The notes beneath the pieces are model-generated. The model had not been told where the DNA came from. It worked only from the letters and a program-made list of their open reading frames with translations, and ran no database searches. Position numbers and translations under genes: made by a program. From a candidate division Zixibacteria bacterium CG_4_9_14_3_um_filter_46_8 (GTDB lineage: Bacteria > Zixibacteria > MSB-5A5 > UM-FILTER-46-8): a stretch of DNA of 41,456 nucleotides. This document shows, piece after piece, positions 1-33,200 of the stretch (the stretch's first letter is position 1; the number at the start of each line of letters is the position of its first letter). Where the stretch lies: NCBI GenBank assembly GCA_002791595.1, contig PFXJ01000128.1, forward strand, positions 26,365-67,820, written 5' to 3'.

Positions 1-173
1 TCGACTAAGGCGTGGTCAAAAAATGGATTCTTCGCAGGATTGAAAAATTGTTTCCGCTCAATCAACAGGGGGGGCACCCAGTTTGGATTTCCTTTATACA
101 CACTCCATGGGAATTTGAGAAACCTGTTGAGCTGTTTCCCCCCGATGACTTTTTCAATCCTGATATCGGGCAT
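1..173 (-). CDS. Bacterial ceramide synthase-like GNAT-family protein, 5' part only (runs off the window)
   Basis: Not in the ORF track. Hand translation from ATG at 173: MPDIRIEKVIGGKQLNRFLKFPWSVYKGNPNWVPPLLIERKQFFNPAKNPFFDHALV. The FPW..Y...P.WVPPL...NPFF.HA pattern matches my recollection of the bCerS family N-terminus. Starts 4 nt after the spt stop. Confidence 0.8.
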   Translation of the reverse strand, partial: MPDIRIEKVIGGKQLNRFLKFPWSVYKGNPNWVPPLLIERKQFFNPAKNPFFDHALV

Positions 174-4592: not shown

Positions 4593-4744
4593 ATGCTATT
4601 ATATTTTTTAATCTTGATGGCGATACCAGAGGTTTGATTTTCAGCAGAATGCCCATAAATTAATAGGATTGAGATTGCCGGGGAATATAATATACTGCTG
4701 GAAACTAAGTTAGCTAATACATAGGTTTTTTGGAAGGAGTTTGG

Positions 4745-14141: not shown

Positions 14142-16415
14142 CTATTTCAGCAATGTCATTCGCTTCGTGAAAACTCTACCTCCCGATTCCAGTCGATAGA
14201 AATAAATCCCGCTTGAATATCGCGGAGCATTCCAACTCACCTGATGCTTGCCCGCAGGAATATTTCCATCCACTAATGTAGCTACTTTTTCTCCTCTGAG
14301 ATTAAATACCTGTAATCTCACATTTGTCCGAATTGGGAGTTCGTATTTAATAATCGTTGTGGCATTGAAAGGATTGGGATAATTGGCGCGAAGAGCAAAT
14401 GCTCGTGGGATTTCGCTATCTGAATCATCAATACCGGTCAGCCTTACATTGGCAACCTCCAAATTCGAGTAAGAGCCCCATTGATTCTGGGCGTCTTTGG
14501 CGCGCACTTGATAATAATAATCACCGGTGCTTCGGCCATCTATCAAATAGGATGTTTGTGTGATATCGGATGCCAGGGAGATACTGTTTTCGAAGGCATC
14601 GACTGGGTAGAGCTGGTCGATATACATGCCGGCTTCCAGCGACCAGTTATCGGTTGCGTATAAGAATCTCAAAATGATGTCTTCCCCCACGAAATCGGCG
14701 AGGGGAAATTTAGCCACGACCCAGGCATTATTGGAACTGCCGGTTATGCCATTCCCCATATTACCGCCATTGGGATTATCATTGGTCGTGATATTTCCCT
14801 CCAGGTTGGTGAAAGCGATGCCGCCATCGGTGCTGGCTTGGACATAAGCATAATCGTAATCCGATTCAATATTGTACCAGGTATAGAATGAAATGGTATC
14901 GCCAATAATGACATGAATGGGAGTATTGAGGATGGCGGTGTAATGGGCGCTGTTTTCATATCCCGAATATAAACTATAGGAACCTTCATATTTGCGCTGG
15001 GTGGACCGGGACCAGCCATTCAAAGTCCAGTCGGCTTGGCTGGATTCAAATCCTTCAACAACCCGTTGATAACCAGTCTTTTCCACGATTTCATAAGCGG
15101 TGGCGGGGTTATCCGGATCGCTGTGACTCCAGGAAATAGTAAAGCTATCGGTAAGGATTTCACCGATTGGATTGAGGGTGGGCGGATTTGGCGGCATAAT
15201 TTGATAGGGATTATCTGAAATCTCCGCCAATATGAGAGCCAAATCCAGATTTTCCTGGTTTATTTCCTGAATGCGGCTGAGTTGAGGCCAAAAACCATCA
15301 TCTCCCCAGCCAACTTCAATGACGAAAGCAAAGATTTTGGGCTTATAAGTCCGATCGCCATATTGCCAATCGGTAGATTCACCGTTAGTTAAATACAGCA
15401 GTTCCGGGCCGCTTCCATAAGCATACCCATTCACCGATGTCATAGTATCTCCCATAGCCCGAAACAGAGGAAGATCCTCCGCAACTATCGACATATCATA
15501 CCCATAAGGATATAGGCAATCACCGGAGTAAGAATGAAAATTCAAGGCAGTGATAAAATGGCGGCTATTGATGAAATCTCTTAATGTTTGGGTTTCCGGC
15601 TCGGAAAACGCCTCGGTCCCCCGATATGTTTCATCATCTGGGTCTGGCGATGAGCCAATATCGTCATAGCCCCACATATAACCCCAATTCCGATTCAAAT
15701 CCACGCCGTATGAACCGCCTCCATTATTCCTCCTATTCTTGCGCCACATACCGCCGCCGTTGGGATCATTGATTCGATTATATTCATAGCCATCAGGGTT
15801 AATGAGCGGTATGAAATAGAATTCACGATTATCAATCAGGTCCGTTGCCAGCGGATCAGAGCCATAATTGTCGCACAAATATCTGATGAAATAGAGATTA
15901 AACAGCAACCCACCGGGTTCGCGTGCATGTATCAAGCCATTGACCATGATTTCGGGCTCATCTTCATCATCCCAGACATTGTCGGAGAGTTTGACCATAT
16001 ATATAGGGCGTCCCTCAATTGATGCCCCAATTGAATCGCGCATGCTGACTATGTTGGGGAAGAGGGAATTATATAAATCCAGCGAATCGTAGGCCTCATC
16101 CATCGTGGGATAGCCGCCCATCGAAAGCGCTTCGCCGTACCTGCTTTGGTAAAAAGCCGTCAAATCCTCATGGATGACAGAGTACTTCAAGCCTGCGAGA
16201 TCCAGCTTCTTCAAGTCCGAGTCATTGGCGACAATGTCGATATATTTCATCTCTGGATTCGCATAGGCCACATCGAGATTAAGCTCAATGACCTTGCCAA
16301 TATCGGCTTTTTGAGAAAGCTCAATCCTAATCTGCATTACTGCGCCAACCTGTGGAGTAGAAAGGATTGCCCCATTTAACATCATAACGAATGTTATCAG
16401 AATAGCTCTTTTCAT
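14142..16415 (-). CDS. Secreted M14 zinc carboxypeptidase (carboxypeptidase T-like) with FN3/jelly-roll domains and T9SS type-A-like CTD
   Basis: IHAREP, NPDG, WRKNR, GVDLNRN, FSEPET, FHSY, IEVG; C-terminal NYPNPFN...SSGIYFY...KRMTLLK. ATG 16415 follows AGAGG. Confidence 0.92.
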   Translation of the reverse strand: MKRAILITFVMMLNGAILSTPQVGAVMQIRIELSQKADIGKVIELNLDVAYANPEMKYIDIVANDSDLKKLDLAGLKYSVIHEDLTAFYQSRYGEALSMGGYPTMDEAYDSLDLYNSLFPNIVSMRDSIGASIEGRPIYMVKLSDNVWDDEDEPEIMVNGLIHAREPGGLLFNLYFIRYLCDNYGSDPLATDLIDNREFYFIPLINPDGYEYNRINDPNGGGMWRKNRRNNGGGSYGVDLNRNWGYMWGYDDIGSSPDPDDETYRGTEAFSEPETQTLRDFINSRHFITALNFHSYSGDCLYPYGYDMSIVAEDLPLFRAMGDTMTSVNGYAYGSGPELLYLTNGESTDWQYGDRTYKPKIFAFVIEVGWGDDGFWPQLSRIQEINQENLDLALILAEISDNPYQIMPPNPPTLNPIGEILTDSFTISWSHSDPDNPATAYEIVEKTGYQRVVEGFESSQADWTLNGWSRSTQRKYEGSYSLYSGYENSAHYTAILNTPIHVIIGDTISFYTWYNIESDYDYAYVQASTDGGIAFTNLEGNITTNDNPNGGNMGNGITGSSNNAWVVAKFPLADFVGEDIILRFLYATDNWSLEAGMYIDQLYPVDAFENSISLASDITQTSYLIDGRSTGDYYYQVRAKDAQNQWGSYSNLEVANVRLTGIDDSDSEIPRAFALRANYPNPFNATTIIKYELPIRTNVRLQVFNLRGEKVATLVDGNIPAGKHQVSWNAPRYSSGIYFYRLESGGRVFTKRMTLLK

Positions 16416-16454
16416 AGTGAACCTCTTTATTATCGTGATAGCTACCAAAGAGCA

Positions 16455-17654: not shown

Positions 17655-20600
17655 ATGGTTAAGAATTTTCGTCTTTATTGCGTGGTGTTATATGTTTTCA
17701 TTGCGGCATTTCAATTCCATCCTGCGTGGGCCTATTCATCCAGAACTCCAGACACTGATGGAGTTACGATTCAAAGCAATGATTCCCGCGGAATAGCATT
17801 TACTTTCCGACCTGGAAAGATGAATTTGGATAGGATTGAAACTGCAAGGGGTGATTTCGATATTATAGGTCTTGAAGATGGTTTTTCGCTGAACAAGCCC
17901 GGTTATCCATCACTACCCGCCCGTAAATTCTATATTGCCTTGCCGCCGGGTTCGTCTCCTCAGACATCGGTCTCGGCGGTCATTGGCACAACGATTTTCG
18001 AATCTCTGAAGCCGGCGCCGTTCGAAGATGGCCAGCCAGTCATCCAGCCGCAGTCAATCTCGAAGGCTCTTTATTCCCAGAATGTGGGGAAGATTCGTGA
18101 TATGGACGTGCTGACGCTGACCGTATTAGCGGCGAACTATAACCCCGCGATTAAAACCGCGGCGGCTTATCGGGCAATAAATATAGATATTCGGTTTAAT
18201 GATAATGATGCCAAGCGGTATGAAACAGTTGGGGAGGATAGATTTGCGCGCAAGATAATGAAGAGTCTCTTGTTGAATTACGAAAACTCCAAAGGATGGC
18301 ATTATCGCTTGGATTCAGCGGCAAGTATGGCTTCAGGCTCCCCATTCGATTCCGCTTTTACCTGGCTCAAATTTAGGACGACCCAAGAAGGGATTCACAA
18401 GATAGATTACTACACTCTCTCCGCATCGGGAGTGCCGCTGGCGGAAATAGATCCCCGAACCATAAGAGTATTCGGGTCGGAGGCCAATGAGTTGCCTCCG
18501 GACAATGATGATCCTTACCCGATGCTCAGAGAATTGCCGATTTATGTTTATGGTTCAGAGGACGGCAGCTTTGACAAGACTGATTATATATTTATGTATG
18601 CGCCGGCAGTAAATAGATTCGAATATGACAGTACTTCCGGGCGCGACTTTTATCATTATAATCACTACACAGCCGAAAATTCCTTTTTCTTTACTTATGG
18701 AACCAGCCAATTTAATGAGCCGCCCCGAAGATGGAGCGAGGTGAATATTGATGTGACGGATTCCCAATTGCCCACGGCCAGCACTTTCTATGATTTTATT
18801 CGTGTCGAGCAGAACAAGATGCTCTGGAGGGATAGCGAGGGAAGCATTCAGGATTTTTACGAGTGGTACTGGGAAAGCGGAACATCATTTGATCGATTCA
18901 CTAACGAACAGCTCTTTGATGTGGTTGCCGGTGACACGGGCTGGGTTTACAGTCAGAGCCGCGCTTCTCAGGCAACCGTCAAGGTCAATGGTCAGCCGGC
19001 GACATTCATCTCTTATTCTTCATCCAGTTGGATTACCACCTCACAGACGTTTAATTTTCAGAATGGGCTGAACGAATTGGAATTCGGCTACTCTGGCAAC
19101 GTAACCTTCAATTATTTCGACTTACAATATAATCGTGGCTTATCGGTGGTCAATGATCATTTGCGCTTCCGGGCGCCCAGACAGGCGGGCACATACATAT
19201 TCAGCCTCAATAATGCCGATCCCCAGTATTTATTGTTAGACATCACCGACCCGCTGTCGCCGAGGAAGCTGGTGGGAGGCAACCTCCAGAGCAACAGTTG
19301 GAGATTTCAGTATGCATCAGAGGGACTAAAATCCAATTTCTTTTATGCGGGGCCTTCCTCCCATAAGACCGTCTCCTCTATGGAATCATATTCTCCTGCG
19401 GGTTTGAGAAGCATCTCCAATTCGGCTGATGGAATCATTATTGTATATGATAGTTTCCGAAAACAAGCGGAGCGGCTGGCATCGCATCGTTCATCATTTA
19501 GCGGATTAAATTATTATATTGCTGACTTATCGGATGTATATAACGAATTCGGATGGGGCCGGTCGGACCCTCTTGCCATCCGTTATTTCTTGAGGTATGC
19601 TTTTGAGAATTGGAACGGCACAAAACCGGTCTCATGCACGCTGATAGGCGATGGTCATTATGATTACCTTGATAACTGCAATTTGAATATCCCCAGTTAT
19701 CTGCCTCCTTTCGAGTATCCCCTGGGTTCACTAAAAGCTTGGGCTTCAGATGACAACTATGTCTTTTTCGGCGCTCACGGGGATTACGATAGCGACAATT
19801 CCGGTTTTCCAGATATGATCATCGGCAGATTGCCGGTGAAATCCGCCGATCAACTCTCGGTGGTCATAGACAAGATTATTGACTACGATGCAGGATCCGA
19901 TCTTGGTGAATGGAAGAATACCATAACGATCGTGGCTGACGACCAGTTTAGCTCTGATAGCGACACCGAATGGTTTCATACTAGTCAGGCAGAAACTCTC
20001 AGTAAATATCATACTCCGCCGTCTTATAAACTCAATAAAATATATGCCATTGATTACCCGATGGAAGAAGGCAGAACTAAACCTTTGGTAAGAAAATCAA
20101 TCATCGATTCATTTAATAATGGGTCTTTGATAATTAATTACATCGGCCATGGTAACAAAAACGTTTGGATGCACGAGCATACATTCAGGAAGACCGAAGA
20201 TCTGCCCCACCTGACCAATCGCAAAAGGCTGCCTTTGGTTTTCGCCGCATCCTGCAGTATTGGCGATTTCGATGATCCCACCGATGAAGGAATGGCTGAG
20301 GATTTGCTCCGGGCCAGCAACGGCGGCGCAATTTCGGTAGCATCGGCAACCAGGGGAGTTTATGCCGGTGAAAATGCAGCCCTTAATAACGCATTCTTCG
20401 ATTATATGCTCAGCCCGGATTCCCTCTCGATTTCAGAGGCCTTCTATGTGGCCAAACTGAGCCGGGGTTCCAAACCCAATGATTGGCGCTATACATTATT
20501 TGGAGATCCTGAACAAACTCTTGGCAAGCCCGATTTTCATGTCGCCATTAATTCAGTGGTCTCCGGAACAACGGCTGATACGCTCAGTGCGTTGGCGCTG

Positions 20601-21578
20601 GTAACCGTGACCGGCCAAGTTCAATATCAAGATGGAACGCCGGCCGGCGATTTCAACGGCGTCGTTTATCTTAATGCCTATGATGCCTTGCGAGTCATTC
20701 CTTATGGCACAGTTTATACTTACAAGCTACCTGGAAATATCTTGTTCCGCGGCCCATCTGATGTCCAGAACAGCATCTTTACTTCAAGATTTCTGATGCC
20801 CAAAGATATCGATTATGGCCAGAGTACGGCCAAAATAATCGCCTATACGATTGACGAGAACCAAAATATTGATGGCGCCGGATATCGGGATTCCTTGTAT
20901 CTGGGCAGAGCGACTGAAGCCTTGAATGATTCATTGGGACCGACTATGACCGCCTACATCGATAACAAAATCGTTAGCGGGAGTTTTATGACTGTTGGGC
21001 CCAGCTTCAACTTTATGGCGGTCCTTACTGATTCCAGCGGGATTAATATGACCGGCCAAGCTGGCCACTATATCTCATTGGTAATCGACCATGGCGAGTC
21101 CTTGAACGCCAATGTAACCGATTATTTCGAATATGATATGAATAATTACCAGACCGGGACGCTGGATTATCGAATTGAGGATTTAGCCACCGGAGATCAT
21201 CATATCGAGCTGAAAGCCTGGGATAATTTTAATAACTCTGCTCTGAAATCCTTCACGATCAATGTTGTTTCTCAAGAGCAGACCGAATTGTTGGATGTGA
21301 TGAATTATCCTAATCCGTTCAAAAACAATACGGTTATTCAATACCGTTTGAATCGCGCCGATATATCCAAAGTCGAAGTAAAAATCTACACGCTTTCTGG
21401 TCTCTGGATCAGAACTCTTAAAAACTGCCCATCAGATAATTCTTATAATTTCGTGGAATGGGATGGACGGGATGCCGACGGTGACGAAATCGCTAATGGA
21501 GTGTACATATATAGTGTCATCGCCGCAGGTCCCGGCGGGAGATCGGAGAACATTCAAAAAGCATTGAAACTTAGATAG
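17655..21578 (+). CDS. porU: Type IX secretion system sortase PorU-like protein (C25 gingipain family)
   Basis: Signal peptide; C25 propeptide; YIFMYA/YNHYT N-terminal motifs; VYNEFGWG..DP.AIR.FL; IGRLPV; catalytic NYIGHG and ASC; LFGDP; KAWDNFNN; CTD NYPNPF...NGVYIY. Confidence 0.88.
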   Translation: MVKNFRLYCVVLYVFIAAFQFHPAWAYSSRTPDTDGVTIQSNDSRGIAFTFRPGKMNLDRIETARGDFDIIGLEDGFSLNKPGYPSLPARKFYIALPPGSSPQTSVSAVIGTTIFESLKPAPFEDGQPVIQPQSISKALYSQNVGKIRDMDVLTLTVLAANYNPAIKTAAAYRAINIDIRFNDNDAKRYETVGEDRFARKIMKSLLLNYENSKGWHYRLDSAASMASGSPFDSAFTWLKFRTTQEGIHKIDYYTLSASGVPLAEIDPRTIRVFGSEANELPPDNDDPYPMLRELPIYVYGSEDGSFDKTDYIFMYAPAVNRFEYDSTSGRDFYHYNHYTAENSFFFTYGTSQFNEPPRRWSEVNIDVTDSQLPTASTFYDFIRVEQNKMLWRDSEGSIQDFYEWYWESGTSFDRFTNEQLFDVVAGDTGWVYSQSRASQATVKVNGQPATFISYSSSSWITTSQTFNFQNGLNELEFGYSGNVTFNYFDLQYNRGLSVVNDHLRFRAPRQAGTYIFSLNNADPQYLLLDITDPLSPRKLVGGNLQSNSWRFQYASEGLKSNFFYAGPSSHKTVSSMESYSPAGLRSISNSADGIIIVYDSFRKQAERLASHRSSFSGLNYYIADLSDVYNEFGWGRSDPLAIRYFLRYAFENWNGTKPVSCTLIGDGHYDYLDNCNLNIPSYLPPFEYPLGSLKAWASDDNYVFFGAHGDYDSDNSGFPDMIIGRLPVKSADQLSVVIDKIIDYDAGSDLGEWKNTITIVADDQFSSDSDTEWFHTSQAETLSKYHTPPSYKLNKIYAIDYPMEEGRTKPLVRKSIIDSFNNGSLIINYIGHGNKNVWMHEHTFRKTEDLPHLTNRKRLPLVFAASCSIGDFDDPTDEGMAEDLLRASNGGAISVASATRGVYAGENAALNNAFFDYMLSPDSLSISEAFYVAKLSRGSKPNDWRYTLFGDPEQTLGKPDFHVAINSVVSGTTADTLSALALVTVTGQVQYQDGTPAGDFNGVVYLNAYDALRVIPYGTVYTYKLPGNILFRGPSDVQNSIFTSRFLMPKDIDYGQSTAKIIAYTIDENQNIDGAGYRDSLYLGRATEALNDSLGPTMTAYIDNKIVSGSFMTVGPSFNFMAVLTDSSGINMTGQAGHYISLVIDHGESLNANVTDYFEYDMNNYQTGTLDYRIEDLATGDHHIELKAWDNFNNSALKSFTINVVSQEQTELLDVMNYPNPFKNNTVIQYRLNRADISKVEVKIYTLSGLWIRTLKNCPSDNSYNFVEWDGRDADGDEIANGVYIYSVIAAGPGGRSENIQKALKLR

Positions 21579-21666: not shown

Positions 21667-24276
21667 ATGAAAACCCTATTGACCGCCATATTGGCGATAT
21701 TATTGATCTGCGGGATAGTGGCCGACGCAAATGCTCAGGTCAGCCGTGCCGGAGTAATCTTTCTGCTCCTTCCCCCAGGAGCACGAGCATCGGGAATGGG
21801 TGACGCTTTTACATCAATCGCCGATGATGCCACCGCAACTTATTGGAATCCTGCCGGGTTAGGGCGGTATCCATTATCTCCTACCTGGTTTGATTTCCCC
21901 AATAATTCCGGACATAAGATCCGCCAGATTGCAGTTCTTAAAAATGGATTGCCCGATAACAATTATCGAAAATATGACACCTGGGCAATTCTCGACAATC
22001 AATTGGCCCGGTTTGATGGCGAAAAATGGATATTCGGAGATAAATATTATCCGGTGGCTGGAGAAAATGCTGATGATATTGCCAGAAGGTTTTCCGGGGT
22101 GGAAAATACCGATAGCCTTGCGGTTCTAAAACAGAAACTGGCTTCAGTAAATAATGTAATAGGCAAAGCCGAGTTGGTGGCCCTGATTAACAAGATTCAG
22201 GAGAATATTCCGGCCGATTATGCATATATCGAAGATGTGAAATATTCATTGGAATCGTTGCTCAATTCTTGGGCGGAACTTACCATCGATAAGGTGAAAT
22301 ATCAGAAGCTACAGACTTTGGTTAACGAATCGTTGCAGGACGGCGCCTTCAGCGCACTGGAATTTGATAAGGTTACCTTCTCAATCAATAATGCGATTGC
22401 GATACGATTACCGGAGGAACTGGATATCCCCTTTAATTTCGTGCTTCCCGATACCCTGACCATACTGGCTTCCGATGGTGAAGAGCTTTGGCTGGGGACG
22501 CCTTATGGCCTGCATAAATACAATGGCAAACGTTGGACCTCATACACAACTGAGGATTCCTTGATTTCCAATGATATTACCGCTATTGCCTTCGGGAAAA
22601 TGCAATCGGTTTGGATAGGGACCGCGGACGGCCTTTCCAGATTCGCGGGCAGAAAGTTGAGCTCTTTTACAGTCGATAATGGACTTCCCGCGAATCGAAT
22701 CGAGCAAATAGCTATAGGCAAAGGAAATGATATCTGGGTCTCGACCGATAAGGGGCTTGCCAAGTTCGATGGCAGCCAATTCAAATCTGCGCAAGACCAT
22801 CCCGTTAATGTCGGTGAAGACCTTACCAGGATTGCCGCCAAATTCGTCCATCTCAGGCCTGGGCCGGCGCTTGATGCTGTTGCGAAGGCAATAAGGGAAT
22901 ACAATGCTTTGGGCGATTCAACGCTTCAAACTGGAACAAGTATCAAACTCCCGTTCTCAGCGGCCATCAAAGGCAATATTAATGCCATCTATACAGATCC
23001 GGAGGGCATTCTGTGGGTTGGAACCACTGAAGGATTGGTTGGTTACGATGGCGATTCCTGGGATTATCAAGGATTCAAGCAATTTACTGGCAAACAGGGT
23101 GATACCGCAGAAAAAATTGCCATGGGCATTTTGGGAGCCAAGGCGGGTGGAGATAATATCTCCCATCTTGCAGGGAGAATTACCCATTTCAACAGTCTTG
23201 ACGAACAGCCGATCGACGCGGGAGATATGATTTATGTCCCATCTGCGCCGGTTGCCTCGGAAATTATTTCTCTGGGCGGTCTGGATGGCGGTGATGTTTT
23301 GGCAGGTACCAAGTATGGGCCCTTCACGAAATCCGGCGATACCTGGAAAAGGTATATGCACGCTGATCTTGACAAGGCGGAAGTGCTTAGCGTTATCCAG
23401 AAAGAAGGCGAAGTCTGGCTGGCCAGCAAGGACAAGTTGGTTATTAATGCCCATTCCAAACGTGAAATGTCATTTATGCACAGCAACTGGCTTCCTTCCT
23501 TAGCAACTGACATATATTTTGAATACCTCTCGTATGTTCAACATTACCAGGGGATAGGCACTTTGGGCGGGGCAATCACCTTCCTCTCTTATGGCGAGCA
23601 ACAGAGAACAGGAGAACAGGGCGAGGACCTGGGCACATTTTTCTCCTATGAGATGGCCTTGGCAGTGAGTTATGGCGCGAAAATCAACGAGAAATTGGCG
23701 TTGGGGTTAAGCGCGAAATATATAAATTCGCATTTATCGGATCTTGGGGCAGGGCAGGAGAAAGGATCCGGAACCGCATCTTCATTCGCAGTTGATGGCG
23801 GCATGCTATGGAGAACGCCTGTCAGAAGGCTGACCATGGGCTTGACCATAACCAATATCGGACCCGATATTTCTTACATAGATGCCGCCCAGGCTGACCC
23901 GTTGCCAAGAAATTTGACTCTTGGTCTGGCTTACGAGCTCTTCAAGAATCCCTATAATAGACTCACCATCGTAGGCGAGGCTTCAAAACAGCTCATCGAT
24001 CTAACTAAGTTCAATCGTGATTCATTCACGGGCAAGATCGGCGAGAAAATGGAGGAAGTCATCGCTCATATCGGAGCGGAATATTGGTATGGAACATTCC
24101 TGGCTCTGCGCAGCGGGTTTGTGAACGATAAAGCCGGACATCAAAGATACTATACGCTTGGAGCGGGTTTGCAATATTCCAATTATCGGTTTGATTTTTC
24201 TTACATACCATCGACCTCAGAGGAATTCAACCGGTTGGGCAATACGATGAGATTTTCAATGACCGCGAGATTCTAA
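21667..24276 (+). CDS. porV: PorV/PorQ-family outer-membrane protein with a large beta-propeller + LysM insertion
   Basis: N-terminal FLLLPPGARASGMGDAFTSIADDATATYWNPAGLG; barrel resumes at aa ~599 (SFMHSNWLP..., NIGP.ISY...DPLP.NL, LALRSG, YYTLGAG); terminal Phe. Confidence 0.85.
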   Translation: MKTLLTAILAILLICGIVADANAQVSRAGVIFLLLPPGARASGMGDAFTSIADDATATYWNPAGLGRYPLSPTWFDFPNNSGHKIRQIAVLKNGLPDNNYRKYDTWAILDNQLARFDGEKWIFGDKYYPVAGENADDIARRFSGVENTDSLAVLKQKLASVNNVIGKAELVALINKIQENIPADYAYIEDVKYSLESLLNSWAELTIDKVKYQKLQTLVNESLQDGAFSALEFDKVTFSINNAIAIRLPEELDIPFNFVLPDTLTILASDGEELWLGTPYGLHKYNGKRWTSYTTEDSLISNDITAIAFGKMQSVWIGTADGLSRFAGRKLSSFTVDNGLPANRIEQIAIGKGNDIWVSTDKGLAKFDGSQFKSAQDHPVNVGEDLTRIAAKFVHLRPGPALDAVAKAIREYNALGDSTLQTGTSIKLPFSAAIKGNINAIYTDPEGILWVGTTEGLVGYDGDSWDYQGFKQFTGKQGDTAEKIAMGILGAKAGGDNISHLAGRITHFNSLDEQPIDAGDMIYVPSAPVASEIISLGGLDGGDVLAGTKYGPFTKSGDTWKRYMHADLDKAEVLSVIQKEGEVWLASKDKLVINAHSKREMSFMHSNWLPSLATDIYFEYLSYVQHYQGIGTLGGAITFLSYGEQQRTGEQGEDLGTFFSYEMALAVSYGAKINEKLALGLSAKYINSHLSDLGAGQEKGSGTASSFAVDGGMLWRTPVRRLTMGLTITNIGPDISYIDAAQADPLPRNLTLGLAYELFKNPYNRLTIVGEASKQLIDLTKFNRDSFTGKIGEKMEEVIAHIGAEYWYGTFLALRSGFVNDKAGHQRYYTLGAGLQYSNYRFDFSYIPSTSEEFNRLGNTMRFSMTARF

Positions 24277-24284
24277 TTTGAGGA

Positions 24285-27200
24285 GTGGGAATTTTGGTTA
24301 GTTGGTTATCTTTTAAGCGATTCATAATCTCCGCCATTATTGCATTATTGACGATGTCTGCTGCTTCGGCATCGAAGGAAATCCTGAATATCGAGAAAAT
24401 CGTGAAGCCGGGCTCCAGCCCATACTCTAAGATTATGCCCGGCAACCGCCCGGAATTTGTTTCGGATGTCTCTCGAAGCAATATCCTAAAGCTTGATCGT
24501 GAGCGTCCCGGAGCTCTTCCTTTTGCTCGAAAAGGTTTGCCGCTTGACGTCTTCCAGGTCGATACCCTCACGGTGCTTGGTTTGCGGGTGCAGTTCAAAG
24601 AAGAAACCCCGAACGATCCGCTGACTACCGGCAATGGGCTGTTTGATATGAGGGACACCCTGCAGTTCAAAGAGGAAGAGGGCCATTACTTCGATACCTC
24701 TCCCCACAATAAAAACTATTTTGCCGCCCATTTGCAGGCGATGTCGCACTATTGGTGGGAGATGTCCGGGCATACTTTGGTCATTCAGTATGAAATCTGG
24801 CCTCCCGGAGTCGATTCCGTTTATCAACTCGATAAGACGAATGGGTATTATCACGAGGAATATGGTGATGACCCGCGCAATGTGCTTGGCGGATATTTCA
24901 AAGATGCCATCGAGTTGGCGGATTCGATTTCGCCGGATTTGGATTTTGCTCAAGCTGATGGCCGTATCAAGCCCATAATAATATTCCACCCCGGATCGGA
25001 TCGACAGAATGATTACAATGGCGACTCACCGCGCGACTTCTACACCGGTTTTCTGTTTCTTTTTGAGCCGGTCGTGGTCGATTCTGGCGCCAATCAGGTT
25101 TCTGAAGGCATTATTATGCCGGAGACCACGACTCAGGATAGGCCCTCGATTGAATGGCCAGTCGGTGTTCTGAACGGAGTGATGGCGCACGAATTTGGCC
25201 ATGTATTGGGGACGCGAGATTTTTATAGTACCTGCAACTTTGGGACCCGCATCGGAGATTTCTCTCTGATGGATAATAACTTCTCCACCACGGGTGCAGA
25301 CTTTGGAGCGAATATCCCTTTCGTCTATGGAGTTCTGCCGGCATCTCTTGATATCTGGACCAAAGCGTATCTCGGTTTTATCAATCCAATCACTGTCACG
25401 GATTCGACCGGAATCGGGATTGTTGCGGCAGGAATGAACAAAGAAGGAACCAAGTGCGTGAAAGTCCCCATCGATAATTATGAATATTTCGTCATCGGGA
25501 ATCATCAGAAGGAGATCGATTATGATGTTTCCAATCCAAACATAGACTATCCTAATGTTATTCTATTGGATAAGGTGACCAGCGTGGTTATGGGGCCGGG
25601 ATATGCTATAACTGATGCGGACACCTTGATCAAAGTAGTGACCGGAGAATACGACCGACTTCTCGATACACCTCCAGAGAATACCAAAGGCGGGATTCTG
25701 GTATTTCATATCGATGAGGTGGTGGCTTATAGCGATTTCTTCGGGGCGGGAATAGGCAACTGGGATCTTAATACTCTACAATGTGATACATCCCGTTGGT
25801 TCATTCGGGTCGTTGAAGCGGATGAGGAAGTTACTTTCGGAAATATCTACCATGCCGGCACCGGCTCCACCGAAGACCTATATCCGTTCGGGAGCAGAAA
25901 TATGCTCAACCCGGACACCAGGCCGTTTTCGTCGGGATCGAATTCCGGAGCCAATACCGGAATTTCCATCAGCAATATTACCGCGCCTGATTCCATTATG
26001 TATATCGATGTGAAGGTGGATAGGCATTTACCCGGATGGCCCAAGAATTCGGTTCCGGGGAATGTAGCCTCACATCCGGTTCCGGTGGATGTCAATGTCG
26101 ATGGCAAAATGGAAATTTTCCAAGCCAATCAATATATACTGACGGGATTCAATTCCGATGGCTCAGGGATTATCAATAATGACTACTCGCTGCAATTATT
26201 AGGATTTGATAATAAGCCGATATCGATTCCGCTCAAGGTTTTCGCCCTTCTGCCAGATTCCATCAGCTATGTCGGAACTCCTTCTGTAGGAGATTTGGAT
26301 GGAGATGGGACCAAAGAGGTGGTTATTGGGGCAAATGATGGCAATCTATATGTGTATAAGGCAAGTGATGGTGATGCCGATGGCTTGGCTGACTTGGCAA
26401 GCGGCTTTCCGGTAGAGCTTGGCGCCGCCGCGGCTGTCACGCCTATTTTGGGCAATTTCGATTCTACCGTTACCCTTGAAATCTGCATGGCCAATATCAA
26501 TGGGAAAGTTACTGTTCACGACCATTCCGGGAATTTGATTTCAGAGGCCGACTCCATTCCCGGCGTACCGAGGGGATTGGCGGTGGGCGGCGACCCAAAT
26601 GCAATTGCTTTCACCTGCAACCCAGCCGATTCGCTCTCCGACAGTTCTTATGTCGGAATGATTCGCCTCGGCGAACATCAGGTCTCCTGGAAGCGGGGAT
26701 ATTTCGATACTTATCTTTATGAACCGGTTATAGGAGATATTGAAGGGGATGAAGTGGAGCAGGTGGTAATAGCTTCCAAGAGCGGCTTAATAGCGGTTTA
26801 CACGGTGCAGGGTGGTGAATTGGCAAATGGCTGGCCTGCGGACGCACAAGATTCGCTTGGCGCCGGCCCGGTCATCGCGGATATCGATAGAAATGGTTTT
26901 GCGGAAATTATTGTGCCAGGTACCAACCAGATTCATTGCTATAGCTTCACCGGCTCGCCGGTGGAGAATTTTCCGGCTGAATTGAATCGGACGCATCCAA
27001 ACGGATTGGTGAATTCACCAGTTATTGTGACCGATGTGGATGCGGATGGATTTCCGGACATACTCGTGGGCGGTCCCCAAAGGGATGTATTCGGATTTAA
27101 TCACAATGGCGGATCACTTGCAATCTTCCCCCTGGCAGTAGGACTGCCGGTTAACTCGTCACCATTCGCCGGAGATATCGACGGCGATGGCGATATCGAT

Positions 27201-27638
27201 TTGGGGGCAAGAGGAGATGACGGGTTTATCAATGCCTGGGATATGGCTCAAACTTTCGTTGACTCACTTAACATTTGGCCTTCTTATGGCGGCGGACCAG
27301 AACATAAGTTCTATCACTCCAAGAACCTCCTCGGGCCGGTGCCGCCATCGGGTCAGCTCTTGTCATCGGTTTATGCCTGGCCGAACCCTTCGCATACCAG
27401 CGCTTCCAACATACATTTCAAGCTTGGTAAGGCCGGCGACGCCCAAATAAATATCAAGATATTCGATGTCGCCGGCAATTTGATGGGTGACTATAACATT
27501 ATCAAAGCAGGACCCGCTGATAACGAATATATTTGGGATAGTTCCGAATTTGCCTCGGGAGTGTATCTGGCAAGGGTCGAAGCCAGATTCGGCGGCGAAA
27601 GCGATTACAAATTCACCAAAATAGCAGTTGTTCGTTGA
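24285..27638 (+). CDS. Secreted M6 (immune inhibitor A)-like metalloprotease with FG-GAP repeats and T9SS type-A-like CTD
   Basis: AHEFGHVLG..DFY, FSLMD, W.K..LG; several D.DGDG..E/D repeats with GWP/GFP motifs; C-terminal YAWPNP...ASGVYL...KIAVVR. GTG start after GAGG. Confidence 0.85.
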   Translation: MGILVSWLSFKRFIISAIIALLTMSAASASKEILNIEKIVKPGSSPYSKIMPGNRPEFVSDVSRSNILKLDRERPGALPFARKGLPLDVFQVDTLTVLGLRVQFKEETPNDPLTTGNGLFDMRDTLQFKEEEGHYFDTSPHNKNYFAAHLQAMSHYWWEMSGHTLVIQYEIWPPGVDSVYQLDKTNGYYHEEYGDDPRNVLGGYFKDAIELADSISPDLDFAQADGRIKPIIIFHPGSDRQNDYNGDSPRDFYTGFLFLFEPVVVDSGANQVSEGIIMPETTTQDRPSIEWPVGVLNGVMAHEFGHVLGTRDFYSTCNFGTRIGDFSLMDNNFSTTGADFGANIPFVYGVLPASLDIWTKAYLGFINPITVTDSTGIGIVAAGMNKEGTKCVKVPIDNYEYFVIGNHQKEIDYDVSNPNIDYPNVILLDKVTSVVMGPGYAITDADTLIKVVTGEYDRLLDTPPENTKGGILVFHIDEVVAYSDFFGAGIGNWDLNTLQCDTSRWFIRVVEADEEVTFGNIYHAGTGSTEDLYPFGSRNMLNPDTRPFSSGSNSGANTGISISNITAPDSIMYIDVKVDRHLPGWPKNSVPGNVASHPVPVDVNVDGKMEIFQANQYILTGFNSDGSGIINNDYSLQLLGFDNKPISIPLKVFALLPDSISYVGTPSVGDLDGDGTKEVVIGANDGNLYVYKASDGDADGLADLASGFPVELGAAAAVTPILGNFDSTVTLEICMANINGKVTVHDHSGNLISEADSIPGVPRGLAVGGDPNAIAFTCNPADSLSDSSYVGMIRLGEHQVSWKRGYFDTYLYEPVIGDIEGDEVEQVVIASKSGLIAVYTVQGGELANGWPADAQDSLGAGPVIADIDRNGFAEIIVPGTNQIHCYSFTGSPVENFPAELNRTHPNGLVNSPVIVTDVDADGFPDILVGGPQRDVFGFNHNGGSLAIFPLAVGLPVNSSPFAGDIDGDGDIDLGARGDDGFINAWDMAQTFVDSLNIWPSYGGGPEHKFYHSKNLLGPVPPSGQLLSSVYAWPNPSHTSASNIHFKLGKAGDAQINIKIFDVAGNLMGDYNIIKAGPADNEYIWDSSEFASGVYLARVEARFGGESDYKFTKIAVVR

Positions 27639-27690
27639 TCTTTGGAATGAAAAAAATGTCGTTATTTTATACATTGATGAGGAGGTTTCT

Positions 27691-28515
27691 ATGAAAAGCA
27701 TCCCCGCTTTGATTTTAGTGGGAGTTGCCATTATATGGATCGCAGTCTGGCCATCGATAGGCAACGCTTCGGCAGATATGGGTCCAAATGGAATTCATAA
27801 TTATTTCAATGGGCTATCATATTCGTCGGAGGGAATCGCATTCAGCAATGCGGGGGCAAACAGCTATTTTCCTCAAAATGACAAGGGAGAAAGATCAAAA
27901 TCAGGCGATAAAAAATCTCCTGTTAATGCATTTCTTTATTCGCTGGCAATTCCGGGATTGGGGGAACTCTATGCCGGGTCAAGGCATAAGCCATATATTT
28001 TCCTTTACATTGATATGGTCCTCATTACCAGTGAGATGATTTATTTCCAGGAGGGGCTGAATGGTGAAGCTGCTTATCGACGTTATGCCGACCTGCACTG
28101 GTTCCGGGATCCATTTAACATCTGGTGGAATACGCTTGATTCGGCGACACAGGCGGGCTATTCACATCGCTTGCCTCCCACCAATGATTATGAATATTAC
28201 GAAAACATCGGGAAATATGATCAATTTGTATGGGGCTGGGATGACTTCGTCGTGGACGGCCCGGTCTTGACCCCGCACCGGGAACATTACCTCGAATTGC
28301 GCAAGAAAGCGAACGATAAGTTCGACACCGCCCGAACCTTTATGGTGGTGGCGATGGTGAATCATGTGGTATCGGCATTCGATGCGGCATTTACTGCAAA
28401 ATCGTATAACAAGCGGGGCCAGTCCGATTTCTTCGGCAATGTGAAAATAAGGATGTTGCCGGTAATAGCGGATAATCAGGTTTACCCCCAATTAACATTC
28501 ATCAAAGGTTTCTAA
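27691..28515 (+). CDS. Exported protein of unknown function (DUF5683-like), paralog A
   Basis: Signal peptide; SP..AFLYSLAIPGLGELYAG motif; hydrophobic helices; terminal Phe. ATG 27691 follows GGAGG. Confidence 0.7.
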   Translation: MKSIPALILVGVAIIWIAVWPSIGNASADMGPNGIHNYFNGLSYSSEGIAFSNAGANSYFPQNDKGERSKSGDKKSPVNAFLYSLAIPGLGELYAGSRHKPYIFLYIDMVLITSEMIYFQEGLNGEAAYRRYADLHWFRDPFNIWWNTLDSATQAGYSHRLPPTNDYEYYENIGKYDQFVWGWDDFVVDGPVLTPHREHYLELRKKANDKFDTARTFMVVAMVNHVVSAFDAAFTAKSYNKRGQSDFFGNVKIRMLPVIADNQVYPQLTFIKGF

Positions 28516-28516
28516 A

Positions 28517-29284
28517 ATGGCAGGCAAAACAGTTCAGATTCTAATGACCATAATTCTGTTCCTCTCCTTCTCGAAGATTGTTTATGCCGAGCAACCGCCG
28601 AAAGTTCGCCAACTGATGATTTCCGAAATCAGTTCGGGGGAAGCAGATGCAAATGGCGATAAAGATTTAAATTGGACTGAACCTGAGAAACAACACAAAG
28701 GGAAATCCGGATTCAAGGCCGGTTTGTTATCAGTAATGCTTCCAGGGGCCGGTGAGTTCTACCTCGGCAACAAATCTCGAGCGGCAGTATTTGTCGGCAC
28801 CGAGGCCGCCATTTGGGGCGGCTACCTCGCATTTCATACCTGGGGCGATTGGCTCAAGAACGATTACAAAAGCTACGCCGCCGAACATGCCGATGCGAAA
28901 GTCTATGGAAAAGATGATAAATTTTTCGACCGAATGCAATTTTACGATAGCCGGGATTGGTTTAATGAAATCGAGGGAGAGAGATACGGTTACCCTTATC
29001 CATATACCGATTATTATTACTGGCACTGGGACAGCCCGGATTCGCGCAAGGAGTTTCGTAAAATCCGCTATAACTCCAAAGCCGCTTTCAGAAATGCAAC
29101 CTTTATGATTGGGGTGGCAGTGGTCAATAGGTTGGCCAGTGTGGTCGATGCGGTATGGTTATCAAGACAGATCAAGAAGGGCGAGGGTTTGGAATTTTAT
29201 GGTGGATGGAGGTTGGATTACAACGCCAATCCGTTTGCTAATAACCCCGATGCCTCGCTGAAACTGAGCAAATCATTTAATTGA
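28517..29284 (+). CDS. Exported protein of unknown function (DUF5683-like), paralog B
   Basis: Signal peptide; KSGFKAGLLSVMLPGAGEFYLG; YA..HA and NR..S.VDA motifs shared with paralog A. Confidence 0.7.
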   Translation: MAGKTVQILMTIILFLSFSKIVYAEQPPKVRQLMISEISSGEADANGDKDLNWTEPEKQHKGKSGFKAGLLSVMLPGAGEFYLGNKSRAAVFVGTEAAIWGGYLAFHTWGDWLKNDYKSYAAEHADAKVYGKDDKFFDRMQFYDSRDWFNEIEGERYGYPYPYTDYYYWHWDSPDSRKEFRKIRYNSKAAFRNATFMIGVAVVNRLASVVDAVWLSRQIKKGEGLEFYGGWRLDYNANPFANNPDASLKLSKSFN

Positions 29285-30252
29285 GCCTTGATTGTGTGAG
29301 CAGAGGTCCCAAATACTGTCTTATCCTCTTACTTGCATTCAGCCTGCCATATATTTCCTGCAGTGGCGCTGGCAGATATGAACCTGGAGTTATCACCCAA
29401 CAAAATCCCCCCAGGGGTTTCGAATTAGTTAGATATATTGGTCCGACAATCGAAGGCGGCGCTGACCTCTATTCGCCTTGCGATATCGCTTTTGATGTGG
29501 ACGGGCAGATGTTCATCTGCGACAATGGCAATCATCGAATATTGAAACTGGGCCGCCAGCTCGCTTTCATCAAGGAAATCGGAGGTTTCGGAAATGGCAA
29601 TGAACAGCTTGCAAACCCAATAGCGATAGTTTTTGATAATGGGCTGACGCTTATGGTTGCTGACACCCAAAAACGACGTATCTCGCGCTTCGATCGGAAT
29701 TTGAATTTCATCGATTTTTTCCTCGAGTATAAATCGGCGGAAGCCTTCGCCAATATCGGAAAACCCTCCGGAATTCATATTGGCCGCAATGGGGATATTT
29801 ATCTCAGCGACGACGATAACAATAGGGTGTTGGTCTTGGACAGCTTCTATAACCTCCAATCCGAAATCGGGGGATTTGGATATGGAAATGGCGAACTTTC
29901 TTCCCCTGCCGGCTTGGTCACAGATCAATCGGATAACCTCCTGGTTGCTGATTCCCGGAATGGCAGAATTGCCGTTTATAACAGCGTCGGAGGGTATTCT
30001 GGCGATTTTGGAAGAGACCGCCTTCGATACCCAATCGATATTGCCATTGACCCCGCCGGCTACATCTACGTTTCGGATCGCAATCTGAAGTCAGTGCTGG
30101 TATTCTCGCGCTCCGGAAAATATACTATTGAAAGCTCATCTTATGGAAGCTTCCTCGATGAACCAGCCGGAATTCATATTCATTCTGATGGCTACATCTA
30201 TGTTGCAGATCGGGCTTCGAACCGAATTGCGGTATTAAACATTATCAGATAA
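29281..30252 (+). CDS. NHL-repeat six-bladed beta-propeller lipoprotein
   Basis: Six P..I..D..G.IYV.D..N.RI repeats; lipobox-like YISC. Start is TTG 29281 or GTG 29296. Confidence 0.85.
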   Translation: MSLDCVSRGPKYCLILLLAFSLPYISCSGAGRYEPGVITQQNPPRGFELVRYIGPTIEGGADLYSPCDIAFDVDGQMFICDNGNHRILKLGRQLAFIKEIGGFGNGNEQLANPIAIVFDNGLTLMVADTQKRRISRFDRNLNFIDFFLEYKSAEAFANIGKPSGIHIGRNGDIYLSDDDNNRVLVLDSFYNLQSEIGGFGYGNGELSSPAGLVTDQSDNLLVADSRNGRIAVYNSVGGYSGDFGRDRLRYPIDIAIDPAGYIYVSDRNLKSVLVFSRSGKYTIESSSYGSFLDEPAGIHIHSDGYIYVADRASNRIAVLNIIR

Positions 30253-30263
30253 CCGATGGTGGT

Positions 30264-33200
30264 TTGCTGTTGTCGGCCTCGAAAATCCCCGTTTTTCTTT
30301 TCTTACTGACTATTCTCTTAGCAAAATCCTCATCTTCAAACGCCACTCAGAGGACAGAAGTTGCCCTGAATGGAGATAATTCGACCGGGCCTTATCTCAT
30401 CTCCCATGACCCGATTGCCATGGGAAGCGATTCGATATGGGTGGATGAAGTGCTTTTCCAGAAAAGCGAAAATTATAGCATCGATTACGATAGAGGTTTC
30501 ATCATCACTTCACAACCGGTGCCAAGCTCATCGACGATCAGGGCCAGTTATATCGCCATCTATTCGCGTTTGAATAATCCCCATTATTTGTACAAACCGC
30601 TATCGATTGACCTAAAAAGCGCATTTCCACCGGATTCTTCAAGGCCCGCATTGCAATCAGAAAAACCGCCCAGCTTCTACAGTCCAGGTCTTAATATCGG
30701 CGGCAGCAAATCACTTTCAATCGAGTTTGGCAGTAGCTTGAATCCCGATATAAACCAGGCGCTCGATTTATCAATAAGGGGTCCTGTCGTTAGGGGAGTG
30801 AATGCAACCGCTTTTGTTTCCGACCGGGGTATTCCGGTTGCTTCCGGCGGCACCAGCACTATTGAAGAGCTGGACAAATTCTTTATCAATATCACTGCCA
30901 AAAATTTCAGCGCCACCCTGGGCGACTTTTATGTCGATTTCAATAGCCTGGAGTTAGCGCGATACAATAAAAAATTGAAAGGGCTGGCTCTCAATTATGA
31001 TGATCAGATTAATCAGGGTTCTATCTCAGCATCTTCATCTTCTGGGCGTTTCACCGTGAATCGTTTTAATGGCCGTGAGGGCGACCAGGGACCTTATCTT
31101 CTCTTCGATCCATCCGGTTCCCGCAGTTTAACCGTGCTGCCCGGCACCGAGACCGTTTTCATCAATGGTGAAAAATTGACTCGTGGATCCGACAACGATT
31201 ATGTCATCGATTATCAGAACGCTCATATCACCTTTACGCCAAAAAGATTAGTAACTTCCGATTCGCGCATCGAGGTTGAATTTGAATATTCGAATCGAGA
31301 ATTTTCACGAGGATTTTATGCTTCGCGATTTCACCGCAGCAACCGTGAGGGTCGATTCGCATTCGGGGCCACAGTCATTGCCGAAATCGATGATAAAAAT
31401 GGGCCACTGAGCGCGGCCTTATCCGATGAGGATCGCCAAGCTATCAAGGATTCCGGGATCGGAGAATATGCGCTCAAATCGGGTGTGGAGTATAAGGGAC
31501 CTGGCCAGGGAGAGTATAATCAGGCCGTCGATTCGACCGGATATATCTACTATCTCTATGTGGGGCCAGATTCCGGGGAGTATCATATCCAATTCTCCAA
31601 TCTTGGTTATGGCAAAGGCGATTATACATATATTGGCCGAGGCATCTATTCATTTGTCGGAGTATTGAAGGGCGATTATGCTCCAGTTGTTAAACTTCCA
31701 GTCCCCAGATCGCAATATCTTTATGGATTCGATGGTTCATTCAATCCAAATGATAATGTCAACTTTCAAATCGAAAGCGCTTATACGCGCAACAATAGAA
31801 ATCTTTTTCTGGGAGATAATGGCGTTATTGATGATCCTGCCTTAATACTGCGAGGAAAGGCCGTCACAAAACCTTCATCTTCCTTATTGCCCGATGAAGT
31901 TGTTTTGTCGGGCAACTATCGCCATACCGCCCGGAATTTTGCCCCTTTTGCGGAATTCCGCGCGGCAGATTATTATAACAAATGGAATCTTCTTCCCAAT
32001 TACAGTTCCGTTACCGAAGATGCGGGCGAGGGTGCCTTATCTACGTCATACGGCAGCCGATGCAGCTTTGACTTCGAGGGCGGGCGGTTGTCGAGGGCAT
32101 CGGAAGGTTACTCTGACCGTTGGTCGGCTGGCGCCGCAGTTGAACTTCCGCTTCAGTCTAAGCTACACGGCAATTTCCGTCAATCGGATCATCGGTCCAA
32201 GGCGGACTCTTTATCCAGCTATTTCAATTTAAAGGGAACGCTTCAGGAATTCGATTCACAGTATGAGTTCCGTCAATGGCTATTCAAACCTTCATTGGGT
32301 TATAAATTCCGCAATAATGAGAATTATGAAAACGAGATTCTTCGCGATGGCGTCAGATATAACATCTATGAAACGGGATTAGCGTTCTATGCGCACAAGA
32401 GGATCACCAATACCGTCACCTACTCCCTGCAAAGAGATGATGAATATGCTGGAAAGTGGTTAAGAAAAGATGAAGCAATTACTCTAACTGAGCAAATCGC
32501 GCTGGCGGATATCCCCGCCGGGCTTACCCTGAATTACGAATACACTTTTCGTAACAAAAGATTCAAGGAAATTGCCGGAACCAACAGTCGCCAGAACCTG
32601 TCCTACTTGACCAGCGGTTTTAATTCCGGGCCATTCTCAATCGAATATAATCATAAATATAATCGGATGCGCGCCGCCTTGAAAATACGTCGCTATATAT
32701 TGGTGGACGAAGGCACAGGCGATTATAGCTACGAAAACGGCGAATATGTGCTTGACCCGTTCGGAAATTACATCTCGGTGTTGGAGGAAGCCGGCGATTT
32801 CCGCCCGATATCGGAAGTGGAGAATGCATTTTTCTTCAAATTTGACGGCAGAAGAGCCAAAGATGATTCGTCATATCTCCGGCAATTCAAATCGGAAACC
32901 TCGTTGGATTTCAATCAGAGGTCGGAAGAGACCGGCATCAAGTTCGTCGATATGATTAATCCGTGGCGCAATATGAACCCTGCGCTTCTTGTCAGCGAGC
33001 AACTACGCTTTATCCAGGACGTTTACCTGCTCCCCGTGAACACAAAGATCAAAAGAGAGATTCGTCTAAGGTATGCTCAAACGCTCATTGTCGCCTCTGG
33101 AGGCAGTTTCGAAAGCGACTTTGACGACAAGCGGTCGGCGGCGGCCAGGCTCCGCCAATCGCTTGGGAAAGGATTTTCTCTGGAAGCCGAATATACTCGC

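Follow-up and report, generated by a model that had tools for sequence, protein, structure and literature searches.

In the secretion system of type IX (T9SS) as pictured from Bacteroidota, PorV is a small barrel that carries cargo from the SprA pore to the PorU sortase; the shuttle role was reportedly described by Glew in 2017, and the current shuttle picture rests on that phylum. Here we describe a protein that is very probably the PorV orthologue of the bacterium Zixibacteria CG_4_9_14_3_um_filter_46_8. Its gene lies in a stretch of 41,456 nucleotides (nt) of contig PFXJ01000128.1 (positions 26,365-67,820 of the forward strand, assembly GCA_002791595.1), which we call the window. The protein shares with Bacteroidota PorV (PDB 6h3i and 8gl6; Porphyromonas gingivalis PorV) a plug with the NPA motif, a 14-strand FadL-type barrel and a gene that adjoins porU, and it differs in having a module of ~530 amino acids (aa) where the Bacteroidota proteins have ~7 residues. 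A shuttle role would be hindered in Zixibacteria if this module holds the cell wall.

Several described proteins resemble parts of this arrangement. PorE (PG1058) of the P. gingivalis T9SS is a lipoprotein that combines TPR and a propeller with an OmpA_C-like wall binder. Its likeness to the Zixibacteria protein would be one of functional logic, a propeller plus a wall binder under the outer membrane; it differs in being a separate lipoprotein with an OmpA_C-like binder, whereas the Zixibacteria PorV has LysM within its own chain. PorE in Porphyromonas can serve as a functional parallel for a tie to the wall (PMC7192894). Outer-membrane barrels with LysM on the periplasmic side are represented by intimin and YeeJ, the latter an inverse autotransporter with an outer-membrane β-barrel and a periplasmic, peptidoglycan-binding LysM (PMC5595812). 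There the LysM is N-terminal to the barrel, whereas in the Zixibacteria PorV it sits inside a propeller spliced between plug and barrel; barrel family and secretion system differ as well. TsaP, which ties a secretin pore to peptidoglycan, differs in being a separate protein and in belonging to the type IV pilus machine, which is unrelated to the T9SS. It is a LysM protein associated with the outer-membrane PilQ secretin pore (10.1101/2020.05.29.123786). The closest relatives of the propeller, by phmmer (E 5e-21) and also by fold, are Bacteroides hybrid two-component sensors (BT4663 and BT4673; 4a2l, 3va6, and 3ott), and the title of PDB entry 4a2l calls its sensor domain periplasmic. These sensors, whose Reg_prop domains bind glycans, differ from the protein described here: they are inner-membrane kinases, have two propellers, and lack both LysM inserts and a barrel. 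PorZ, a T9SS component, also has Reg_prop-like propellers (5m11), but it is a secreted surface protein with a C-terminal domain (CTD), for which the Zixibacteria PorV gave no match.

A PorV protein divided by a propeller module

The gene occupies 21667..24276 (+) as a single uninterrupted open reading frame (ORF) of 869 aa. The first-pass annotation, made from the sequence alone, had read it as a PorV that breaks off at aa 66 and resumes at aa ~599. A phmmer alignment to PDB sequences gives the same borders: aa 10-64 correspond to F. johnsoniae PorV 5-64, with WNPAG over WNPAK, aa 599-777 to PorV 72-258, and aa 788-869 to PorV 312-395, leaving ~530 aa (aa 67-598; ~534 residues by the alignment ends) between plug and barrel as against ~7 residues in F. 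johnsoniae PorV. The PorV_fam profile (NF033709) matches in two stretches with 255.5 bits (cut-off 90), aa 595-868 covering profile positions 42-325; in a scan of the source genome (2.73 Mb in 133 contigs, 94% complete), a separate N-terminal match over the plug covers positions 3-40 (contig C84, 48115-48228). The plug region also holds 9 of the 30 invariant columns in an alignment of 79 homologues (L33, R40, D54, N61, P62, A63, G64, G66, and P69).

An AlphaFold2 (AF2) model built on the 79 homologues reached a mean pLDDT (predicted local distance difference test) of 89.9 and a pTM (predicted template modeling score) of 0.84. The best Foldseek matches of the full model in the PDB were PorV chains in SprA complexes (8gl6_F, E 1.8e-18; also 6h3i_F). 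Superposition with VIA-align on F. johnsoniae PorV (8gl6_F) gave Z 36.7 over 312 aligned residues, with a root mean square deviation (rmsd) of 3.5 and 31% identity; the alignment spans model residues 25..869 and covers both plug and barrel, and FadL and TodX followed at Z ~30. Secondary-structure assignment with DSSP places the plug helices at 31-66, seven sets of three or four strands each from 73 to 595, and 14 strands between 600 and 868. The chain can thus be divided into a predicted Sec signal peptide (aa 1-23, 21667..21735 (+), ending in ANA followed by Q), a PorV/FadL-type plug, or hatch (aa 24-66, 21736..21864 (+), ending in YWNPAGLG), the insert (aa 67-598, 21865..23460 (+)), and the 14-strand PorV barrel (aa 599-869, 23461..24273 (+), Pfam PorV E 5e-24), which closes with a terminal Phe. 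The signal peptide was read from the sequence; residues 2-16 form a hydrophobic helix, pLDDT is low at 16-27, and the putative cleavage site follows ANA.

That the insert contains a Reg_prop propeller, as had been proposed, is borne out by both profile and fold. Pfam Reg_prop (PF07494) matches it with E 1.7e-12 and 46.4 bits (cut-off 20.4), and in the 55 of the 79 aligned homologues that were scanned with the Pfam Reg_prop and LysM models, Reg_prop was found at E≤0.01 in 47. Foldseek returned the Bacteroides sensor propellers 3va6, 3ott, and 4a2l at E 1e-11 to 1e-12 and PorZ (5m11) at 1.6e-7, and VIA aligned model residues 70..599 to single propellers at Z 22-24 over 256-281 residues; the propellers of these PDB entries we take to be seven-bladed. 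Three decorations stand between the blades, a β-six helices-β element at 124-255 and β-α-α-β elements at 375-429 and 470-525. The insert is a seven-bladed Reg_prop propeller with LysM units after blades 1, 4, and 5, and the whole-chain pTM suggests that propeller and barrel would be held in a fixed arrangement.

The source genome encodes eight PorV-family frames above the subfamily cut-off, among them one PorQ-like (177.5 bits) and one PorV2-like (139 bits). On the PorV equivalog model (NF033710), the seven paralogues score at most 82 bits as against 192 for the insert-bearing protein. Directly upstream of the latter lies the genome's sole PorU match above the cut-off (17655..21578 (+); T9SS sortase/C-terminal signal peptidase, 1307 aa; NF033707, 720.6 bits, cut-off 420). 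A tree of 33 rows was calculated with the insert removed; it drew on 14 of 77 insert-bearing loci and omitted three control loci that had no usable ORF. One group was formed by the 15 rows with the insert (SH-aLRT [Shimodaira-Hasegawa-like approximate likelihood ratio test] support 93) that was sister to three proteins scoring above the PorV equivalog cut-off, from Mucilaginibacter, a Bacteroidales metagenome-assembled genome (MAG), and Gracilimonas (joint branch, 99). The PorQ-like paralogue joined PorQ equivalogs, and its PorV2-like counterpart a PorV2 equivalog. The protein adjoins the only PorU of its genome and groups with PorV equivalogs; we consider its orthology to PorV, and the architecture described here, very probable. 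The genome also encodes SprA, a separate 751-aa PorZ-like CTD protein (182 bits; PorZ cut-off 260), and ~45 frames to which the PorU model aligns through its CTD end alone, and these show that the genome has the outer-membrane portion of a T9SS.

LysM-type units and their variation among homologues

The three decorations are unit 1 (aa 121-258, 22027..22440 (+)), a LysM core split by a four-helix bundle, and the LysM modules unit 2 (aa 373-432, 22783..22962 (+)) and unit 3 (aa 469-528, 23071..23250 (+)). The first-pass annotation had predicted three LysM-type units, and the elements of the model lie within a few residues of where it had put them: β375-379, α386-394, α400-413, and β425-429 in unit 2, and β470-474, α481-489, α495-509, and β521-525 in unit 3. 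For profile comparisons, the units were cut by coordinates from related loci and aligned (unit 1, aa 119-260; unit 2, aa 371-433, 46 sequences; unit 3, aa 467-529, 73 sequences). Solved LysM domains came out on top for the unit-2 profile searched against the PDB (LytE LysM, E 2.3e-10; the Thermus LysM pair 4uz2, 6.8e-7), and the unit-3 profile matched 4uz2 (E 4.8e-8), LytE (9.9e-7), and the autolysin LysM 2mkx (7.6e-4). Units 2 and 3 were linked to each other by hhalign with 98.5% probability (E 1.8e-15).

Unit 1 was linked to unit 2 through its first 46 columns (96.7%, E 3.5e-10) and, in seven loci where it is naturally short (~71 aa), over 62 columns (97.1%). Modelled alone, it reached a pLDDT of 93.9, and Foldseek of this isolated model against the PDB gave nothing at E<0.4. 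In a wide VIA search, LysM-type baseplate proteins aligned to its core at modest Z scores of 4.6-4.9; 6u5b_6, for example, aligned at Z 4.6 with 53 of the 55 residues of its chain (rmsd 2.2, model 7..140), skipping the bundle. The four middle helices matched only generic four-helix bundles in the VIA search (Z≤7.1), which leaves the bundle without an informative relative. The hhalign link to unit 2 and the baseplate LysM alignment that skips the bundle identify unit 1 as a LysM whose α2-β2 loop has received a four-helix bundle. LysM hallmark residues are nearly invariant in units 1 (N162 and P255) and 3 (N43 and G53).

By single-sequence family scans the units are harder to see. Among the 55 homologues, Pfam LysM (PF01476) was found at E≤0.01 in 14 and above its cut-off in 8, the best reaching 53.7 bits in two stretches. 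Scanned over the whole source genome at E≤0.01, the model missed the porV gene and matched solely a three-LysM protein on contig C10, which indicates that the units are strongly diverged.

The module varies among homologues. The propeller and unit 1 are kept in all 79 aligned homologues, and unit 1 is plain (65-92 aa, without the bundle) in 9. Units 2 and 3 are both wanting in 19 of the 79, with 9-12 and 3 residues in their places, and these rows include ones named Fibrobacter sp. and Chitinivibrionales; one further homologue lacks unit 2 alone. In ~25 of the 79, acidic low-complexity sequence within the α2-β2 loop of unit 2 brings this unit to 72-152 aa. The unit-3 segment of one locus (L076) has 132 residues in two halves with like endings and, from its sequence, reads as a duplication. 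Unit 1 is duplicated within porV in some lineages: 18 of 121 Zixibacteria genomes have tandem unit-1 matches in one frame (e.g., G003, G009, G016, and G018; frames of 1050-1070 aa). From this modular variation, the ancestral form was thus PorV with the propeller and one LysM, to which the others were added later. Multivalent wall binders commonly vary in copy number in this way.

Homologues of the unit-1 bundle also occur as stand-alone genes. The bundle is matched (profile ~50-128, E 6e-9 to 6e-6; L109-L113) by small proteins that are 122-167 aa long and have a membrane helix at the N-terminus, and such membrane-anchored homologues were found in 6 of the 121 Zixibacteria genomes. In the five loci inspected, the small gene has the same neighbours, which, judged by the starts of their sequences, are putative rplQ and plsY/gpsA homologues.

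Spread of the architecture, membrane side and role

A word-indexed protein search gave 434 proteins at E≤0.001, and the best 120 of these include ~100 full-length relatives of 780-990 aa. In databases, "PorV/PorQ family protein" is the name given to those of Zixibacteria, an FCB-group bacterium, Chitinivibrionales, and Fibrobacter sp.; others are entered as "ligand-binding sensor domain-containing protein." The full architecture was present in all of the best 80 genome loci, which come from independent assemblies and include complete chromosomes. Used as a marker, the unit-1 profile matched 120 of 121 sampled Zixibacteria genomes, from 79 of 80 genera, with for the most part a single match per genome in a frame of ~860-1070 aa, and at least 25 of 81 Fibrobacterota genomes; the latter count is a lower bound, since the profile holds only two Fibrobacterota rows. 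Against 1.84 billion cluster representatives, the profile gave 99 matches at E≤0.001 (74 at E≤1e-10), nearly all at residues ~120-263 of PorV-length proteins or their fragments, which indicates that the module is confined to this PorV family. A PorV with a propeller-LysM module is therefore the phylum-wide norm in Zixibacteria and not an oddity of one genome.

In all likelihood, the insert would lie on the periplasmic side of the outer membrane. Both ends of FadL-type barrels are periplasmic, and the hatch exits the lumen at the periplasmic mouth. The modelled barrel has an even number of strands (14) and the C-terminal Phe at its end, and its turns alternate between short (3-5 residues) and long. 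Only four residues separate the last propeller strand (590-595) from barrel strand 1 (600-607), and six lie between the NPAGLG helix and the first propeller strand (73-78). With periplasmic barrel ends, 14 strands, and linkers this short, the module would have to sit in the periplasm underneath the barrel, and the topological argument for this placement made in the first-pass annotation thus holds for the model. Such a position agrees with the usual periplasmic location of Reg_prop sensor domains and of LysM domains in diderm bacteria.

We propose that in the PorV of the Zixibacteria T9SS, the short linker between plug and strand 1 has been replaced by a ~530-aa module below the periplasmic mouth of the barrel. 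The LysM units would hold the glycan strands of peptidoglycan, and the propeller and the unit-1 bundle would offer a docking face for periplasmic partners or cargo. This would station PorV on the cell wall, along with PorU and probably the SprA translocon, rather than leave it to diffuse freely. YeeJ and TsaP provide precedents for LysM as the link between an outer-membrane machine and peptidoglycan. For this wall-tethered PorV with a docking face, we put the chances slightly above even, and we judge peptidoglycan binding by the predicted LysM units to be marginally favoured as well.

Several observations weigh against this proposal. The Pfam LysM match of the window protein (aa 380-429) scores 19.7 bits, slightly below the cut-off of 20.9, and 41 of the 55 homologues scanned lack a LysM match at E≤0.01. 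All three units have ~9 extra residues between the helices in comparison to solved LysM domains. In canonical LysM, the α2-β2 loop lines the sugar groove; this loop contains the four-helix bundle of unit 1 in 70 of the 79 homologues and the acidic low-complexity stretch of unit 2 in several relatives, and units with an occupied loop may therefore not bind glycan. Nor would multivalent wall binding be universal, since 19 of the 79 homologues have unit 1 alone. With regard to orthology and topology, the protein scores 192.1 bits on the PorV equivalog model (cut-off 250), the insert splitting the match in three; the tree comes from a quick IQ-TREE run; and the membrane side was deduced from topology. 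The main alternative, a periplasmic insert whose propeller and four-helix bundle serve protein docking (of T9SS partners or the CTD of cargo), with LysM-derived decorations that no longer bind glycan, would account for the weak LysM signal in most members and for the filled groove-lining loop of unit 1. The propeller is moreover the element present in every homologue, the bundle exists as membrane-anchored stand-alone proteins, and GldL was matched in 0 of 61 Zixibacteria genomes (the source genome and 60 others) by models that match in three of four controls, so that the periplasmic T9SS parts may differ in Zixibacteria and need another scaffold. We nevertheless regard such a pure docking role as possible but rather unlikely, since the LysM hallmark residues are kept in units 1 and 3, units 2 and 3 appear to have been gained, and the unit-3 segment apparently duplicated in one locus, rather than lost, and in nine homologues unit 1 is plain and free of the bundle. 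In the periplasm of diderm bacteria, LysM domains are also, as a rule, peptidoglycan binders.

Compared with a wall-tethered periplasmic module, a surface-exposed one is very improbable. The first-pass annotation had offered such a PorV-PorZ-like fusion as its alternative. An insert of this kind would present the anchoring glycolipid to PorU; in its favour are the Reg_prop-like propellers of PorZ, the Foldseek match to 5m11, and a weak match to the PorZ model (NF052228) at aa 302-376. This match, however, amounts to 27.7 bits as against a cut-off of 260, the protein has no Por_Secre_tail (CTD) match, and PorZ is a poorer match than the periplasmic sensor propellers of Bacteroides. With 14 strands and a four-residue link between propeller and strand 1, two passages of the chain through the lumen would be needed. 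We rejected the fusion, which is also not needed, since the genome has the separate PorZ-like CTD gene and, elsewhere, the PorQ-like barrel. The source is a draft genome in 133 contigs, in which a Reg_prop/LysM gene could have been misassembled into porV, or the gene could be decaying. Against this stand the one unbroken frame, the continuous high-confidence model, and the ~100 full-length relatives, and the identical order of parts in 80 of 80 loci together with the marker in 120 of 121 Zixibacteria genomes rules out a chimera or pseudogene, which we consider practically out of the question.

The first-pass annotation knew of no description of this architecture. That part stands as far as the open literature goes: we found no account of a PorV with a propeller or LysM insert, and nothing on PorV or type IX secretion in Zixibacteria (supplements and subscription journals lay outside this coverage, and some matches were judged by title or the start of the abstract). 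Passages of PMC11285876 describe no such PorV, and the covered text of the Fibrobacter succinogenes study of Raut 2019 (PMC6851124) mentions the T9SS 16 times and PorV, PorU, and SprA never, its supplements, which may list the Fibrobacter protein, being outside the coverage. The proteins are, however, already in public databases under generic names, and the architecture is the norm of a phylum. A sister phylum as a whole and at least about a third of the sampled Fibrobacterota build PorV with a large conserved propeller-LysM module. Should the cell wall indeed be held by this module, what is taken for a mobile shuttle would be a wall-anchored protein, and the shuttle model of PorV cannot be general. 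Residues 67-598 form a concrete, expressible domain that bears on the positioning of an outer-membrane secretion station. The simpler form of the insert occurs in named Fibrobacter sp. assemblies, and Fibrobacter is culturable (passages of Raut 2019, PMC6851124).

The models for the motor proteins GldM (TIGR03517 and PF12081) and GldL (TIGR03513) gave no match in the source genome, at its completeness of 94%. The controls in which GldL/GldM models do match are Marinoscillum, Mucilaginibacter, and the Bacteroidales MAG; they miss in Gracilimonas (Balneolales), so the negatives mean that the proteins are absent or too diverged. The type IX motor may thus be missing or strongly diverged outside Bacteroidota, which makes it an issue what drives type IX secretion there. 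A further-reaching scheme, which we regard as doubtful, would have PorV of Zixibacteria (and, in reduced form, of Fibrobacterota) as a wall-tethered station whose module replaces PorK/N/E, which serve as ring and anchor in Bacteroidota, and perhaps receives CTD cargo, in a T9SS without a recognisable PorL/PorM motor.

Gene neighbourhood and other PorV-family genes

The genes around porV recur in other genomes. PorU lies upstream in 75 of the 80 loci (67 of 69 where the upstream flank is 1500 nt or longer), and in the two Fibrobacterota loci it is found elsewhere in the genome. Directly downstream in the window is a gene for an M6-like metalloprotease of 1117 aa with FG-GAP repeats and a T9SS CTD (24285..27638 (+); T9SSA_dep_M6i, 283.9 bits, below the cut-off of 600; HEFGH in the translation); an M6-like CTD protein takes this place in 71 of 80 loci (66 of the 67 with at least 1500 nt of downstream flank). 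Two small ORFs follow, of 295 aa (27628-28515 (+)) and 255 aa (28517-29284 (+)). Their counterparts occur in 47 and 44 of 80 loci, or 41 and 40 of the 44 loci with at least 6000 nt of downstream flank. The two are paralogous, with a common "PG.GE.Y.G" motif, match no Pfam or NCBIfam family, and may be further parts of the secretion module. Next comes an NHL-repeat protein (29281-30252 (+)), present in 31 of 80 loci and in 31 of the same 44.

Just downstream of these secretion genes, 30264-35368 (+) holds a pair consisting of a 1121-aa ORF without a family match (only a 20-bit SprA-like stretch) and a 579-aa Omp85/BamA-like protein with POTRA domains. The window also encodes proteins that look like secreted T9SS cargo: near porU-porV, an SBBP-like propeller protein with a T9SS CTD match (4730-6592 (+)), and an M14 carboxypeptidase with a MAM-like domain and a T9SS CTD match (14142-16448 (-)). 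An S8 subtilase (11885-13663 (-)) lies between these two CTD cargo genes, and the CTD end of the PorU model matches inside its ORF (~11924-12154 (-)).

Elsewhere in the source genome, a PorV-family barrel on contig C78 (L005:1375-3243; 127.8 bits at aa 43-309) has a C-terminal extension of ~300 aa with TPR-like matches, presumably an added periplasmic domain. Contig C132 carries tandem PorV-family paralogues of 339 and 311 aa (L004/L008/L090) near a weak PorU2/PorU-like frame truncated by the end of the contig, and these genes may constitute a second sorting module of the PorU2/PorV2 type. Gracilimonas tropica (Balneolales; G204) is similarly rich in paralogues to the Zixibacteria genome, with 11 PorV-family matches at E≤1e-15, as against 1 to 3 in three controls of the Bacteroidota type.

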